A stretch of DNA of 37,127 nucleotides from a virus (lineage: Duplodnaviria; Heunggongvirae; Uroviricota; Caudoviricetes): IMG/VR virus record IMGVR_UViG_2923339551_000001, one strand, 5' to 3'. The translations under genes were made by a program, and so were the position numbers. The notes beneath the pieces are model-generated. The model saw only the letters and a program-made list of their open reading frames with translations. It had not been told where the DNA came from and searched no databases. Positions 997 through 33,007 of the stretch are shown here, in pieces (the first letter of the stretch is position 1; each line of letters starts with the position of its first letter).

Positions 997-1195
997 TACG
1001 TATCCTTATACCTGAAATCTTCGCAAGTATGCCTGGCCGCGAGATTATGGCACACTTGTCCGGTTAACTCTCGTCTCATACAGGTAACACAAACGTGAAA
1101 ATCCTTGTTGAGGAAAATAATAGTGGTTTAATCTTTTGATATAAAAGGATTTATATCATCGTATGTCCACGCAATGACCACATTTTCGAGTTACA

Positions 1196-1233
1196 GATGA
1201 CAAAACGCCCGTTTTCACGGGCGTTTTGTCATC
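1196..1233. terminator. Perfect 16-bp-stem hairpin downstream of the 1254-2147 gene
   Basis: gatgacaaaacgcccg / ttttca / cgggcgttttgtcatc read directly; no clean U-tract on either side, so function as a terminator is uncertain. Confidence 0.4.
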
Positions 1234-1253
1234 TGATATTGGGGAGGTATATA

Positions 1254-2147
1254 CTATTTCCAGTTACAAGCATCTTGAAGCGGTTTTAGTGCATTTGACA
1301 GGCCGCTTAAATTGAAAGTTGCACTTACAGGGCTTTCATTATAAGGGGTTATTTTTGTGTACATTTTATGTGAGTTGGCAAGTTTTCTTATGAAATCAAT
1401 ATCATTACCTTTATAAAAAACAGCCTTTGTATCTGTAGATATTAGCCAGTTTCTTTCAACTGCTTTCTGTTTATCAAGACGATACAGCATGCTGGTTTGT
1501 TCAAGGCCTAAATATACATCCCAACTAAGAAATACTTCGGTTTTCTTTTCTCGGCAAGCTATAAACAGAGTGGGAGTAACAGCTTCTCCAAATGGAGTTC
1601 TGATATAATCATCACTTTCTAACGATAAAATTATATTTTTCGAATCATCAATTGGCGATGTAGTAATGGACGTGTGCCATTTTCCTGCATCTGTGGCTTT
1701 CTCTAATTGTGATTCAGATTGAACAGCTTCATCCTGTGGGAATAGTTTATCGTAGCAGTTTAGTCTGGCTTCTTTATCATTTTCTGCTCGGCATTTAGAT
1801 ATTTCAGAAAGATTTGGTTGCTGAGCCTTTGTTGTTACTAGCTTTTCCGTTTTAGATTTTGAGTTTACAGATGGAGTAAATGTTGGAGAAAAAAAACGAT
1901 CATAACAAGATAAACGTTTGTCATCATCTTTCTCATCAGGGCATTGATCCCTGCTTTCAAATTTTTCAGCAACTTTCGTTCGAGTCGGTTGTATTGACTT
2001 ATCGTAACAAGAAAGTCTGTCTTTATTGTTTTCTATCGCTCGGCACTGGAGCACTGCATTGAAATTCTTATGTTCAGTTGCTGCATGAACAGGCAGTACA
2101 CTAATTGATATAAATAATGCACCTATAGAAAAAATCATATTTTTCAT
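1254..2147 (-). CDS. Hypothetical secreted protein with three Cys-containing repeats
   Basis: 297-aa ORF, AT-rich; N-terminal signal-peptide-like segment (MKNMIFSIGALFISISVLPVHA); three repeats of C-x8-9-RLxCYD(K/R)xF; family not recognised. Confidence 0.6.
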   Translation of the reverse strand: MKNMIFSIGALFISISVLPVHAATEHKNFNAVLQCRAIENNKDRLSCYDKSIQPTRTKVAEKFESRDQCPDEKDDDKRLSCYDRFFSPTFTPSVNSKSKTEKLVTTKAQQPNLSEISKCRAENDKEARLNCYDKLFPQDEAVQSESQLEKATDAGKWHTSITTSPIDDSKNIILSLESDDYIRTPFGEAVTPTLFIACREKKTEVFLSWDVYLGLEQTSMLYRLDKQKAVERNWLISTDTKAVFYKGNDIDFIRKLANSHKMYTKITPYNESPVSATFNLSGLSNALKPLQDACNWK

Positions 2148-2151
2148 TTTA

Positions 2152-2484
2152 TTATCCCTTTGGTTTAGTAAGAAATACTAAAATTCCGATAATGATATCG
2201 CCAATAACCCATAAGCCTCCAATGACAATTAAACCTAAGCCCGTACCAATAACTGCCCCAGCTTTTTCGGCATCGGATGTGGTATTGTTTATTATTTCAT
2301 CAGCGCCTCCTAGTCCAACTAAAAGTGTATAGATCATAAAAATATTAAAAAATATAAAAGTCCATTTAATGAGTTTTCCAAAAAATGAACGCTTAAGTTT
2401 TTTCAGTTGTTTACCACAAGCAGGGCAACATAATGCTGAATCGCTTACCTCTTTCTGGCATTCAGGACATTTGATTAATGTCAT
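2152..2484 (-). CDS. Hypothetical zinc-ribbon membrane protein
   Basis: 110-aa ORF; N-terminal CPEC-x10-CCPAC zinc-ribbon motif followed by two hydrophobic helices; 4 nt upstream of the secreted-protein gene, likely one operon. Confidence 0.6.
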   Translation of the reverse strand: MTLIKCPECQKEVSDSALCCPACGKQLKKLKRSFFGKLIKWTFIFFNIFMIYTLLVGLGGADEIINNTTSDAEKAGAVIGTGLGLIVIGGLWVIGDIIIGILVFLTKPKG

Positions 2485-2683
2485 GTAATCCGTCTCCTTT
2501 GGAACACTACAAGCTGAAATTTGTTACAAAACATTTTGATTTTATCAGATTTTTTGTTGTTGATAAGTGCCAATTGATTAACTGGTTTAGAGTGATACAT
2601 ATAGAAAGGTAGAGCAGTGTCAGTGTGTGATGAAATACCCACAGTTTCATGGGATTTTTGCATTTAGAGCTGTGAGATAGGGT

Positions 2684-2790
2684 AATGTAGTTCAGTTAAG
2701 GAATTGAGGTTCGATAGCTCGAACCTCGCGCAGAGGCAAGATGACTGAAAGCCTGATTCCTTAATGCACAAAAATGAGTCTCTATTCATA
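2684..2790. repeat. Left terminal inverted repeat of the cassette
   Basis: Reverse-complements to 4056-4166 at roughly 93-95% identity (hand alignment); contains nested internal palindromes ttaaggaat/attccttaa and gaggttcga-tagc-tcgaacctc. Confidence 0.6.
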
Positions 2791-2996
2791 GAAGTGTATT
2801 AACTAATCGACATCGCCTGTTGTGTGGATTGCCCCCATAAACACGGGCTTTCTGCTTGTTTAGTAGTCACAGTATGTCTAAGCTTTCTCGTTAGCTTCTT
2901 CTGAAATGACCTGCACTACAAGCCCGCGCTTCCCATACACCACATGCAGTGCAAACTGACGCATCGGTTTTTCAATCAGCTAACTAAAAGTTTGGC

Positions 2997-3830
2997 TCAC
3001 CAAACGATGCGCCCATCTGATGTATGTCCTTTGGCTTGTTTTACTATACTGAAATCTACTATTCCATATGGATAAATTTTATTTACTTTAAACACAAGAT
3101 TAGCAACTAAATGCATTCTCGATTTAACTGTTTCTGTGCGCAAAGCGATATTTGAGGCCCCTTTTATTTTAGCGCTAGGATAAATGAGACCATCAACATC
3201 AGGGTATTTATCAAGAAGAAGACGGCAAAAAATTCTTGAGTAAATATAATTTACCTCATGGGCATTGATACTATTAAGCAACTCAGCAGAAAGGGCATCC
3301 ATATACAAATATGATAGCAAAGCACGGATGTCGTCCTTACCAATTCTGCTAATGATGCCACGAATTTCATTAAACACTTCAATTGAAATTGTATTTACAC
3401 CGTGATACACATTAAAGACCTCACCGATAGCAAAACATCGCATTCCAGACTCTGAATTTTCCGGCATCTTAAAGTGAGCTATGTGAACATAATCCCCTTC
3501 TTTTGCATTAATTTCGGCTAAAGCTGTTCCGATACTATAAGCGCCATAGAAGATAGCTTGTCCATCATCATTCATTCGGCCTATTTTACATTTTTCTGGT
3601 GGAGGGGGATATATTTCACTGATGTTATTATATCCGCATTCATTTGGGCACTTTCGCGCTCTAAAAATTGGTCTGTCATAACCGAACTTGAAATTAACAC
3701 CGCCATATGATTGAAGATACCATCTAAGTAATCTCTCTACTTTCTCTGGCTTTATAGTAGTTAGTAATTCTTTACGAAACAGATCAAGACTATTTAACTC
3801 AATTACCTTTAGCTTATTATTCATGACCAT
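2997..3830 (-). CDS. RES-domain protein (putative NAD+-targeting toxin), no adjacent antitoxin gene
   Basis: 277-aa ORF, AT-rich; motifs FRAR, GRMNDDGQAIFYGAYSIGTALAEI and GLIYPSAKIKGASNIAL match the Arg/Glu/Ser signature regions of the RES family as I recall them; no Xre-like partner ORF in the cassette. Confidence 0.55.
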   Translation of the reverse strand: MVMNNKLKVIELNSLDLFRKELLTTIKPEKVERLLRWYLQSYGGVNFKFGYDRPIFRARKCPNECGYNNISEIYPPPPEKCKIGRMNDDGQAIFYGAYSIGTALAEINAKEGDYVHIAHFKMPENSESGMRCFAIGEVFNVYHGVNTISIEVFNEIRGIISRIGKDDIRALLSYLYMDALSAELLNSINAHEVNYIYSRIFCRLLLDKYPDVDGLIYPSAKIKGASNIALRTETVKSRMHLVANLVFKVNKIYPYGIVDFSIVKQAKGHTSDGRIVW

Positions 3831-4055
3831 CCCTATAATTTTAGAGTTTCGTTATTCACTTTACACTTCATGCTGACCAGTTACCGCCACTGAGTCTACT
3901 GCACAGGCTAACAATTTATGGTTATTTTTCAATGTACAAGTACAAAAAATCAAGGCGTTCTAGAACTAGAAGTCGTCAGTTGACCGCGAAAGGTAAGAGG
4001 CGGCATTCAGACAATGCGGGGGATACACCGCCAATGTCGAGTAGTTAAGCGCTTT

Positions 4056-4166
4056 TATGAATAGAGACTCATCTTGGGCATTAAGGAATCAGGCTTTCGG
4101 TCATCTTGCCTCTGCGCGAGGTTCGGGCTATCGAACCTCAATTCCTTAACTAACTGAACGGCATTG
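4056..4166. repeat. Right terminal inverted repeat of the cassette
   Basis: Reverse complement matches 2684-2790; followed by the 12-bp direct repeat. Confidence 0.6.
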
Positions 4167-4239
4167 GTGAGATAGGGTGCCTTATCGACCTTACCCTGGC
4201 AACCGATTGACGGGGGATTGCTCCCCCGTCGCGGTTTCC

Positions 4240-4380
4240 TTACTGCTTACACTGTAAGAACGCCGCAAACTCCGCTCCCCAGAAGCTCATCCGTATTTCG
4301 CACAGCGAACCGTGCAGCATCCAGATGATGAGGATTGCCGTCACGCAGAACGTGATGGCCGTAAGCGATTTTTGCGACAT
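4240..4380 (-). CDS. hok: Hok/Gef-family type I toxin (small membrane peptide)
   Basis: 46-aa ORF not in the track (under 60 aa); hand translation MSQKSLTAITFCVTAILIIWMLHGSLCEIRMSFWGAEFAAFLQCKQ; SLCEIR and E-x-AAF motifs and the TM segment fit Hok/Gef; AAGGAG Shine-Dalgarno 8 nt upstream. Confidence 0.6.
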   Translation of the reverse strand: MSQKSLTAITFCVTAILIIWMLHGSLCEIRMSFWGAEFAAFLQCKQ

Positions 4381-4570
4381 AGCGCTTGCTCCTTTTTCAG
4401 GGAGGCGCTAACCTATCACTTGCTAAGGTTAGACGGTTAGGGCCTCGGTTAAACAGAAATGTTTTCCGGGGCCTTTCCACATCTGGCCTTCGGGTATTCC
4501 CTCCGACCATCAGCCGAAAGGCACCCGCGCGTAATCTATCGCTTTTTTGTTACTCCGGCAATTCTGCCTG

Positions 4571-4831
4571 TTAATTCTGAGATAAAGGCAAACTCATCTG
4601 ATTGTTTCCCCTGTGTGAAGCTGGCAACTCATGCCACGGGATACCTTCTGAAGAGTGAACGCCGGGGGCGTGTTTCGATGTGAATTTATGGAAAGCTTCC
4701 AGTGTTGAGAAACTTATGCCGCATTCCAGGTTGTTACACTGGTAATATTTTTTCCGTACGGTGTTTGAATCATTTTCCGAACGACTGGTGCGGATACGGG
4801 CAGATGCGCCACAAAGCGGACAACGGAACAT
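4571..4831 (-). CDS. ogr: Ogr/Delta-family zinc-finger late transcription activator
   Basis: 86-aa ORF; CPLC-x19-CNNLEC zinc finger and N-terminal similarity to P2 Ogr; position next to D. Confidence 0.8.
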   Translation of the reverse strand: MFRCPLCGASARIRTSRSENDSNTVRKKYYQCNNLECGISFSTLEAFHKFTSKHAPGVHSSEGIPWHELPASHRGNNQMSLPLSQN

Positions 4832-4873
4832 AGCGACCTCCCTTAACGTGGTGCTGCTGCTATTCTAAGTTGC

Positions 4874-5983
4874 TCACTCTGTTTCTGCTATCCATTCCGG
4901 GATTTTTGCTTCAAGCTCAAGCTGCGTGGTAAAGCCACTGTTATCAATGGTGTGCTCGGCTTTCGCAATAATCCAGTCCTGATTATCAATCTCGCTTTTA
5001 AATCCTGTTACCGTGCCATGCATTTCGGGGTAGAGTTCTGCGCGTCCACGAGCCAGTGTGATGGAGAATGATGCGGCTCCGCGTTGTAGCTGCTGCCACT
5101 TTGCCGCCGCTGCGCGTCTTGCTGCCAGCTCGTTCTGATAAGTCTTGCGTAACACAAACACATTGCCATCCGCGCCTTCCATATAGTCACCTTCACGGCT
5201 GCTGCTTTTCTCCTTTTTGGGTTTTGGCGGTTTACGGCGTTTCACGCTGACTTTTTTCTTTTTCCCGTAATTAAGATCAAGCCAGTAGGCGCGTACCCCC
5301 GTATACGCCTCGCGGTCAGCAATACGGAATTGATGGCGATCGCCGCTGCTGCGTGTAATGGCGAACGAGGGCAACGGCTGGCCCTGTGCGTTCACGCCAC
5401 CACCTGGCATGATGAATAACAGATTACCGCTTTTTACCGTGGTGATTGCGCCCAGCATTTCCGCCATGCGCGTAAGGAAAGACATGTCGCTTTCTTCGGT
5501 CTGGTCGGCGTGGTCGATTTCGATATCCATCAGCATTTCGCTGATTTGCGGTTTCAGGCCGTACCGATGAGCGATGGCGGATACCACGCGCTCAACGGTC
5601 ACATCATGCCAGGATACTTCACGTTTAACGTTAAATTCATCCCGAAAATCTGCGCTTCTGGCTGAAACAGTCAGCCTGTCCGGCGGTCCTTCGTGAGCGA
5701 TTTCATCAACAATGTAAGTGCCTTTTTCTGTCAGCGGTTCTCCTTTCCAGCCAATGAGAACCGTCAGGCGCGCGCCCCGTGGCGGTAGCTGCAACTGACC
5801 ATCCGCATCATCCAGCGTGATGGTGAGCTGGTCCGCTTCAAATCCCCGGTTGTCGGTCAGTGACAGGTTCATCAGGCGCTCTGCCACGCCGGACAGCGTT
5901 TTACCCTCCGCGAAAATATCCAAATCCGGCATTTTCACGGGGTCTGTGCCCTGACTGAGCAATTGCATGGTGGTATCGGTCAT
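4874..5983 (-). CDS. D: Tail protein D (late control gene D family)
   Basis: Track ORF 4874-6115; I place the start at the internal ATG at 5983 (MTDTTMQLLSQG) because of a GGGAGGG Shine-Dalgarno 6 nt upstream; gpD-like sequence throughout. Confidence 0.8.
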   Translation of the reverse strand: MTDTTMQLLSQGTDPVKMPDLDIFAEGKTLSGVAERLMNLSLTDNRGFEADQLTITLDDADGQLQLPPRGARLTVLIGWKGEPLTEKGTYIVDEIAHEGPPDRLTVSARSADFRDEFNVKREVSWHDVTVERVVSAIAHRYGLKPQISEMLMDIEIDHADQTEESDMSFLTRMAEMLGAITTVKSGNLLFIMPGGGVNAQGQPLPSFAITRSSGDRHQFRIADREAYTGVRAYWLDLNYGKKKKVSVKRRKPPKPKKEKSSSREGDYMEGADGNVFVLRKTYQNELAARRAAAAKWQQLQRGAASFSITLARGRAELYPEMHGTVTGFKSEIDNQDWIIAKAEHTIDNSGFTTQLELEAKIPEWIAETE

Positions 5984-32685: not shown

Positions 32686-33007
32686 GGTGTGGCCCCTTGT
32701 GTAGTAAGTTGTGAAAACTCACCATCCAGAGCTGCGAAACTGTGGGTGGCGAGACGTACGAGGTTCGCAGTACCGGCTACACAAGAACCCGGCCCGACCG
32801 AAGTCGGCCCCGTACGCCCCGCCATAATTCTGACGCGAAAAAAACGTGGCAATACAGTACGCACAAAAAAACCGCTGGCGCGGTTGTGCGCTTGTGTAGT
32901 CAGCAGGCTGCGAAACCCGGCACCCGTTTTGTGAGGTGCAGCGGAAATGTAACCTGACTGATTGCGGCATGGCAAGCGGTTTTTTTGTGTGTGCATGTTC
33001 TGGTTTC

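Follow-up and report, generated by a model that had tools for sequence, protein, structure and literature searches.

How did a gene enclosed by long inverted repeats, with no transposase of its own, come to lie in the genome of a temperate phage? The question is raised by a cassette of about 1.5 kb at positions 2672-4178 of IMG/VR virus record IMGVR_UViG_2923339551_000001, a stretch of 37,127 nt that was analysed at full length (hereafter the window) and that corresponds to an approximately complete P88-like temperate phage of Escherichia coli (genus Xuanwuvirus, family Peduoviridae). The cassette carries a gene for a RES-domain protein, and a first-pass annotation made from the letters alone had proposed a non-autonomous unit moved in trans, with the flanking 12-mers as a target-site duplication or recombination core. 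Our analysis upholds that proposal and makes it specific: the cassette is very probably a non-autonomous transposon of the IS4 subgroup, that is, a mobile insertion cassette, perhaps organized as a Tn10/Tn5-like composite whose ~135-nt arms resemble miniature inverted-repeat transposable elements (MITEs), and we infer that it moved in trans by means of an IS4-subgroup transposase. This reading is supported by empty alleles, by IS4-type tips combined with a fitting duplication length, by a second insertion site, and by the lack of a transposase. The structural features that define mobile insertion cassettes are present, namely insertion sequence (IS)-type repeats around a passenger gene, no transposase, and a duplication of the parental type, and mobility is indicated both by insertion polymorphism (the site is empty in two phages and 124 E. 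coli genomes) and by the occupation of more than one site.

Boundaries of the cassette

The first-pass annotation had placed inverted arms of ~105 bp at 2684-2790 and 4056-4166. Repeat searching recovered these arms as blocks at 2694-2771/4074-4151 (78 nt, 96%), 2771-2794/4052-4075 (24 nt, 92%), and 2684-2698/4151-4165, and comparison of one arm with the reverse complement of the other carried the similarity inward to ~2825 and ~4025, so that the arms are in fact longer (~132-142 nt), with an extra GTTA in the right tip. The left arm, downstream of the RES gene, spans 2684-2815 (+ strand, ~132 nt, MITE-like, with internal palindromes and weaker similarity on to ~2825), and the right arm, upstream of the RES gene, spans 4032-4166 (- strand, ~135 nt). 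The nested palindromes described in the arms are equally real: a stem, TTAAGGAAT/ATTCCTTAA, encloses a hairpin, GAGGTTCG..CGAACCTC, and DNA folding z-scores range from -3.1 to -3.9 for the left arm and from -1.4 to -1.8 for the right.

Exact copies of GTGAGATAGGGT abut the arm tips on the left (2672-2683) and on the right (4167-4178), as had been reported, with a chance probability of ~4^-12 at fixed positions, and we interpret them as a target-site duplication. The 12th base of the left copy is polymorphic, being T in the window and C in the copies of the type found in Xuanwuvirus phage P884B11 (L003, L004, L021, L037, and L048; L numbers denote the loci compared), which gives the junction GGGT/AATG in the former vs. 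GGGC/AATG in the latter. The duplication can thus be read either as 11 bp (GTGAGATAGGG, with symmetric tips CAATG...CATTG) or as 12 bp (AATG...CATTG).

Between the arms, the 277-aa RES gene was correctly described as the only substantial open reading frame (ORF). No transposase is encoded in the cassette, in keeping with the initial description, or elsewhere in the window: the RES gene is the only ORF of at least 60 aa inside the cassette, and a tblastn search of the whole window with InsG, the IS4 transposase, gave nothing below E=0.6. InsG itself matches PF13006 and PF01609, and because the element lacks a DDE transposase of this kind (PF13006 + PF01609), it is non-autonomous and not an IS.

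Terminal repeats of the IS4 subgroup

The outer terminal inverted repeats point to the family of the element. On the left arm, the repeat lies at 2684-2704 (+) and reads AATGTAGTTCAGTTAAGGAAT, an IS4-subgroup type with two mismatches to AATGCCGWTCAGTTAAGGA (CC>TA relative to the tip conserved elsewhere). On the right arm, it lies at 4141-4166 (-) and reads CAATGCCGTTCAGTTA[GTTA]AGGAAT, with a lineage-specific 4-nt insertion; the same right-type tip minus GTTA is present in L005, L022, and L071. The window tips can be summarized as CAATGCCGTTCAGTTA[GTTA]AGG and (T/C)AATGTAGTTCAGTTAAGG, and the arm tips as (C)AATGCCGTTCAGTTAAGGAAT. For comparison, IS4 of E. coli K-12 (L027:17091-18516) has the ends TAATGCCGATCAGTTAAGGA and TAATGCCAGTCAGTTAAGCA and a 12-bp duplication, ATCTTGGTTCTG. 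The cassette tip as it survives in sister copies, CAATGCCGTTCAGTTAAGGAAT, is identical to the IS4 right end at 18 of 19 positions (one difference, first base excluded), while the two ends of IS4 itself differ from each other at 3 positions. For the IS4 subgroup, De Palmenaer et al. (PMC2266710, Table 1) list ends of the form -AATR--------WTW---- together with direct-repeat lengths of 10-13 bp. Both parts of this published signature are found here: the cassette tips follow the end consensus, and the duplications measure 11-12 bp at the window site and ~12 bp at the second site described below.

The same tips also bound elements that do encode transposases. Scanning metagenomes for AATGNNGTTCAGTTAAGGAAT yielded 42 loci whose flanks vary widely and which often lie where a contig ends. 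In 13 of them, an InsG-like transposase (27-36% identity, E down to 9e-72) is encoded directly inward of the tip. Further examples come from an E. coli IncF plasmid, whose element has CAATG tips, a transposase (WP_029488891.1) with 39% identity to InsG, and an 11-bp duplication (TTCAGTTCGGG), and from a Klebsiella pneumoniae IncC plasmid, whose element has the same tip, a homologue (WOZ95487.1) with 53% identity to InsG, and a 13-bp duplication. Apart from the copies at the E. coli phage site described below, the 21-nt tip shows no variation, whether in Enterobacter phages or in insertion sequences from soil. IS4 is carried (≥80% coverage) by 2479 of 5426 complete E. coli genomes, so the host species commonly offers a candidate helper; enterobacterial plasmids bear further elements of the subgroup. 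In one metagenome (Ga0123355_10000925, locus L036, 991-1271), we also observed a 281-bp transposase-less element with the same IS4-type repeats at both ends, in which the inverted repeat runs 13 nt further out; this is an unrelated MITE of the IS4 subgroup.

Each arm of the cassette further includes an inward-facing, degenerate copy of the terminal repeat, located at 2797-2815 (-) in the left arm (6/19 mismatches) and at 4032-4050 in the right arm (5/19 mismatches). Such an inner repeat occurs at a conserved position in five of six arms compared (4-6/19 mismatches; none detected in the RES-upstream arm of L071, L071_up), for example CAATGTCGATCGGTTAAGC in L005 with 4/19 mismatches, and the shuffle probability per arm is 1.5e-4 for ≤4 mismatches and 1.4e-3 for ≤5. 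On this basis the arms resemble ~135-nt MITEs, and the whole element a Tn10-style composite with MITE arms, a likeness that is only suggestive since solo arm copies were found nowhere (E. coli genomes, plasmids, phages, IMG/VR, and GTDB representatives).

Empty sites and a second insertion

Alleles with a single 12-mer, which the first-pass annotation had proposed to look for, exist in several backgrounds. In phage PhiR44_2 and in Citrobacter phage Shae_phiSM, the flanks are continuous across one copy of GTGAGATAGGGT with nothing else between them, and the uninterrupted site occurs in 124 of the 5426 E. coli genomes. The cassette is present in 65 of these genomes, always at one site, and the arm sequence was detected in those 65 only, exactly twice in each and always within the cassette. 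Neither the cassette nor the arm had a match in 72,556 plasmids, and P884B11 (two database entries) was the only phage with the arm among phage records. Each of the 65 E. coli copies, like the phage records, aligns to the window unbroken and in the same orientation. An inner-arm 19-mer scan of 185,579 GTDB species-representative genomes gave three matches (Hadarchaeota, Hyphomicrobiales, and Acidobacteriota), which were discarded as chance because they came without an IS4 tip and without an InsG-like ORF.

A variant of the E. coli phage site was seen in metagenome contig OLNN01001643.1 (L065, 2967-3036), where the site holds nothing but a 70-bp palindrome: the two tips meet, fused, at the hairpin GAGGTTCG..CGAACCTC, with neither 12-mer lost. 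All 5426 complete E. coli genomes lack this "mini" allele, which could represent either a rare deletion scar or an artefact of assembly; it is unconfirmed, given that misassembly at an inverted repeat is possible.

RES homologues at 88-92% nucleotide identity share the cassette arm, and arms are limited to this clade (≥88% identity); none were found around more distant RES homologues (Lelliottia, Citrobacter, an integrative and conjugative element copy in E. coli, and an rcnB-adjacent island represented by L011-L015). Within the clade, the most complete version is L071, a 3.1-kb contig with tips at 612 and 3008 that delimit an element of ~2.4 kb. L071 is a second, independent insertion with its own ~12-bp duplication, which brings the number of independent insertions to at least two. 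Its site is the ogr terminator of an Enterobacter-type P2-like phage, where the flanks TCGTTTTTGCGA and CCGCTTTTGCGG are identical at 9 of 12 positions and, when joined, rebuild the terminator hairpin. The same terminator is uninterrupted downstream of ogr in Enterobacter phage ENT4 (GCCCCGCATTTGCGGGGC / AAAAAAGCCCCGCATTTGCGGGGCTTTCTTTT). Comparison of ENT4 (L084 ~400-430) with L071 (599-611 and 3009-3020) shows that the element entered the ogr terminator hairpin precisely at its centre (CCGCATTTGCGG). A near-palindrome, GGCGCTAAGCGCC, is likewise the sequence duplicated by the IS4-type element of K. pneumoniae, and YTAR is found ~4 nt from the tip in many of the soil copies; together with the terminator centre, these cases hint at a symmetric target preference in the IS4 subgroup.

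The second site is filled in L071, L005, and L070. The copies in L005, L070, and L022 share an identical tip boundary, and in L022, an HP1-like peduovirus, the tip follows the spike gene and again adjoins a small palindrome of similar kind, probably a third insertion site. A second tip was sought in L005 and none was found, the copy there being truncated.

The RES cargo and its lost partner

The passenger gene (2997-3830, -) encodes an intact 277-aa protein with a Pfam RES match (PF08808, E=5e-12). The family has an ADP-ribosyltransferase fold and acts as nicotinamide adenine dinucleotide (NAD+) phosphorylase or NADase, the RefSeq label being "RES family NAD+ phosphorylase". A sequence search of the PDB with the protein gave no significant match and the fold search alone succeeded: the AlphaFold2 model (predicted local distance difference test score 86.7, 31-sequence alignment) found as its best PDB folds the RES toxins 6gw6, 6d0i, and 8gug, followed by diphtheria toxin, with a Foldseek probability of 0.98 and a target TM score of ~0.5 to the RES toxins. 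RES proteins are known to act by NAD+ phosphorolysis or as NADases, and phage-borne RES toxin-antitoxin modules have been described (PMC9503650). From family membership, the cargo most likely depletes NAD+ as a prophage-borne toxin or abortive-infection-type gene, and a role as a prophage toxin or in superinfection exclusion is plausible.

Ratios of nonsynonymous to synonymous substitution rates (dN/dS) of 0.12-0.19 between lineages indicate purifying selection on the ORF, which is intact in the window and in 5 of 6 other sampled copies. The exception is the copy in P884B11 (L003 4398-5224, NC_049391), where a 1-nt gap relative to the window shifts the frame and divides RES between two annotated coding sequences, reflecting either a pseudogene or a sequencing error. 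The region upstream of the gene (3831-4031, -), presumably its promoter and 5' leader, is ~80% conserved with the Enterobacter-type elements, and a strict consensus scan called no promoter in it.

The cassette in the window is a reduced form of a two-gene unit. In L071, the RES gene (957-1790) is directly followed by a gene for a 305-aa protein with a C-terminal zinc ribbon (1891-2808), and the window cassette is collinear with L071 minus L071 positions 1836-2732, meaning that the window copy lost the partner gene through a deletion of ~0.9 kb. A relic of ~76 nt from the 3' end of the partner gene remains at 2875-2950 (-), with the deletion junction at 2950/2951; blastn also aligns it with the distant, arm-less loci L011-L015, at the 3' end of a gene for a 291-aa zinc-ribbon protein located after RES (L015 6943-7818). 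The only Pfam match of the partner, to Zn_Ribbon_TF, scores 23 bits, below the 29-bit cutoff, and the protein may be an uncharacterised RES partner or antitoxin. That RES persists without it in the window and in the truncated L005 and L070 copies indicates that RES is tolerated alone.

Characterized RES-Xre modules (P. putida RES-Xre, ParST, and VPA0770/0769) share the RES/ADP-ribosyltransferase fold and Pfam RES match of the cargo and differ from it in several respects. The cargo is 277 aa long vs. ~145-160 aa, with an extra N-terminal helical part, and no ORF for an Xre/helix-turn-helix (DUF2384-type) antitoxin occurs in the cassette, the ancestral partner being instead the downstream zinc-ribbon protein that the window has lost.

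Inversion, concerted arms, and the state of the window copy

The Enterobacter-type copies also record a rearrangement. The ogr-side junction of L005 and L070 is base-identical to that of L071, but abuts the RES-upstream arm, whereas that of L071 abuts the downstream arm, and the far-side gene is likewise reversed in L005 and L070 vs. L071. Together, the swapped junction and the reversed gene show that the RES segment was inverted relative to its flanks between two Enterobacter-type lineages. A later deletion in L005 and L070 took away the partner along with the second arm and a portion of the adjacent gene.

The outer ~100 nt of the arms are 86% identical within the window element vs. 71-76% between elements, while the inner arm ends remain orthologous as upstream or downstream arms. 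The arms thus evolve in concert, as they would if the inverted repeats underwent gene conversion or flip-flop recombination with each other. The inversion fits an occasional by-product of homologous recombination between arms and not a programmed switch, given that none of the 65 E. coli copies is inverted.

In every copy examined at the E. coli phage site (the window, L003, L004, L021, L023, L037, L048, and L065), the left tip has AATGTAG for AATGCCG and the right tip has the GTTA insertion. These mutated tips and the single site in E. coli suggest that the window copy is a fixed fossil, inherited with the phage and probably no longer mobile.

Proposed history and alternative explanations

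These observations can be arranged into a proposed history, some steps of which are shown directly. An IS4-subgroup DDE transposase supplied in trans would have recognised the outer repeats ((C)AATGCCGTTCAGTTAAGGAAT), excised the unit, and inserted it by an 11-12-bp staggered cut. As comparison with L071 shows, the unit consisted originally of the gene for a RES-family NAD+-consuming toxin and that for its 291-305-aa zinc-ribbon partner, with the ~0.9-kb deletion coming later. As the filled and empty alleles show, it landed in a P88-like (Xuanwuvirus) temperate phage, where the hok module has its 3' edge, and duplicated GTGAGATAGGG(T). The window copy, both tips mutated, would now be inherited with the phage and probably immobile, and exchange between the arms would have homogenized them and mediated at least one inversion in a sister lineage.

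Several points weigh against this account. No transposition event was observed, and the tip, conserved as it is across the whole IS4 subgroup, designates the subgroup and not one mobilising enzyme. No parent IS or solo MITE with the ~120-nt subterminal arm sequence turned up in the E. coli genomes, in the plasmids and phages, or among GTDB species, each represented by one genome. In E. coli only one site is occupied, with lineage-specific changes in both tips, and the window copy may never have moved within this species. The duplication at the second site has decayed to 9/12, and only the ogr-side half of that site was matched in an uninterrupted phage. The inner repeats that give the arms their MITE look are degenerate (and, in L071_up, undetected). 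Finally, the function of the cargo is drawn from its family only; PADLOC and NCBIfam gave no match for the RES protein or its partner.

A more ambitious version of the same account, which we regard as rather unlikely, would give the element the specific task of carrying a RES NAD+-toxin or defence module from one P2-like temperate phage to another and of targeting the ends of transcription units, such as the ogr terminator centre and the 3' fold-back of the hok mRNA. The long concerted arms would then be kept for roles beyond transposase binding, which may include transcriptional insulation of the cargo, a regulatory RNA replacing the lost partner, or orientation flipping.

That the cassette might be an invertible segment had been raised in the first-pass annotation, and this part of its interpretation held up least well. 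In a programmed switch, an invertase would act on the ~140-nt repeats and turn the RES segment around to control its expression. Long inverted repeats are indeed present, their homogenization within an element would be consistent with such flipping, and the orientation of the segment between identical flanks is opposite in L071 and in L005/L070. However, this is a single inversion between Enterobacter-type lineages, and the 65 E. coli copies and the phage records have one orientation throughout. No invertase gene is adjacent, as there would be in Hin/Gin/Cin-type systems, and the upstream region of the RES gene is itself part of the segment and would turn with it, which gives flipping no obvious effect on expression. 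We consider a programmed switch very unlikely.

An equally poor prospect is an ordinary moron acquired by illegitimate or homologous recombination, with the arms serving as terminator or insulator and the 12-mer reflecting coincidental microhomology. The location of the cassette within a low-GC moron block (GC 0.32-0.40 at ~1000-4000 vs. 0.50-0.57 in the structural genes) and the folding of the arms into hairpins would suit this scenario, but the tips agree with IS4-subgroup repeats at almost every base and are the same tips that bound transposase-bearing elements, the duplication length fits the subgroup at two independent sites, and the empty sites are base-precise.

Slightly less probable again is a site-specific recombination cassette, in which the 12-mers would be an attL/attR-like crossover core for an integrase, Xer, or integron-type recombinase. 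Identical 12-mers around the unit, a single copy in the empty site, and a tyrosine integrase encoded elsewhere in the phage are what this explanation has in its favour. Yet the flanking repeat differs by site (GTGAGATAGGGT vs. CCGCWTTTGCGG at the ogr terminator) and is thus derived from the target instead of being a fixed core, the ends of the element are inverted repeats matching a DDE-transposon family, and the cassette neither contains nor adjoins a recombinase gene. Interpretations as an integron attC cassette, Xer/dif module, casposon, or Tn7-type element were likewise dropped on the IS4 tip match. The least credible option, a chance pair of copies of a widespread enterobacterial intergenic repeat (REP, ERIC, or a MITE family) around a gene, would explain why the arms are palindromic and non-coding, but is refuted for the collections searched, since the arm is confined to 65 genomes with exactly two copies each and to one phage, is absent from the plasmids, has no Rfam match, and gave only chance hits in the 19-mer scan. 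Of the two outcomes that the first-pass annotation had named as fatal to its reading, a widespread repeat and missing direct repeats, neither was observed.

Relation to known mobile elements

Set beside IS4 itself (the insG element), the cassette interpreted here as an IS4-type mobile insertion cassette has a near-identical terminal repeat (18/19 to the IS4 right end) and an 11-12-bp duplication within the subgroup range, as the 12 bp of K-12 IS4 are, and in IS4 and its relatives, too, the tip is part of a local hairpin. Unlike IS4, it has no transposase and carries passenger gene(s), its subterminal sequence is unrelated to that of K-12 IS4, and its inverted repeats are ~135-140 nt long vs. 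~18 nt.

The arms of Tn10 and Tn5 (IS10 and IS50) belong to the IS4 family. In these transposons, as in TIME-COMP (PMC4133298) and the Tn3-type mobile insertion cassettes of Xanthomonas (PMC4337579), two inverted arms with outer and inner ends bracket the cargo, and the outer ends alone suffice to move the whole unit. The cassette seems to share this architecture, but its arms are only ~135 nt, non-coding, and degenerate at their inner ends, with no solo copies found.

The cassette MIC231 offers another parallel and is reportedly mobilised in trans by IS231A. It is an IS231-derived mobile insertion cassette of Bacillus cereus, within the IS231 subgroup of the IS4 family (Chen et al. 1999 and De Palmenaer et al. 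2004, cited in PMC2266710), and, like the element described here, it has IS4-family repeats around a passenger gene, no transposase, and direct repeats of 10-12 bp. The two differ in subgroup (IS231 vs. IS4), host clade, and cargo, and the arms of the present cassette, in phages of Enterobacterales, are much longer. According to a 2008 review of the IS4 family, such modularity was not seen in subgroups other than IS231 (PMC2266710). With our results, the known range of mobile insertion cassettes would come to include the IS4 subgroup as well as phages of enterobacteria.

The mobility mechanism is conventional, and no new kind is revealed. What the locus offers is a base-precise example of moron acquisition by a temperate phage through a transposase-less IS4-type cassette, for which filled, empty, inverted, and decayed states are all available for comparison in P2-like phages. 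It also flags an uncharacterised RES and zinc-ribbon module, possibly a toxin or an anti-phage system, along with its orphan RES derivative, as cargo spreading among Peduoviridae.

Phage context of the insertion

The phage bearing the cassette is a P2-like E. coli phage, and window positions 2600-4260 are 99.2% identical to P884B11 (37,100-bp genome). On one side, the neighbours are ogr, gpD, and the tail sheath; on the other, they are genes for a zinc-ribbon membrane protein, a VasI/TagO-like protein, and the integrase. The cassette lies immediately downstream of a hok-type toxin gene (4240-4380, -, 46-aa ORF), with the insertion point ~62 nt beyond the hok stop codon at the 3' edge of the module. 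Because hok-module homology stops at the 12-mer GTGAGATAGGGT in >1000 E. coli genomes, the insertion may have altered 3' processing of the hok mRNA. The putative hok mRNA (4167-4570, -) is predicted to form a long-range 5'-3' fold-back in which GGGUGCCUU pairs with AAGGCACCC (z = -5.8), and the cassette is only a few nucleotides from the 3' fold-back element.

Adjoining the cassette at 1254-2484 (-) is a low-GC gene pair encoding the VasI/TagO-like protein (PF11319, E=1e-25) and the zinc-ribbon membrane protein (110 aa). This pair constitutes a type VI secretion system-accessory-like moron between the integrase and hok, and is kept in PhiR44_2 and Shae_phiSM.

An Rfam scan of the whole window at gathering level had no match in 2000-5000 and returned only two RNAs, both near 32.8 kb: a C4 antisense RNA (83 bits) beside isrK (64 bits), at 32742-32939 (-). 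The C4/isrK pair is a P1/P7-type immunity RNA module within a P2-like phage.

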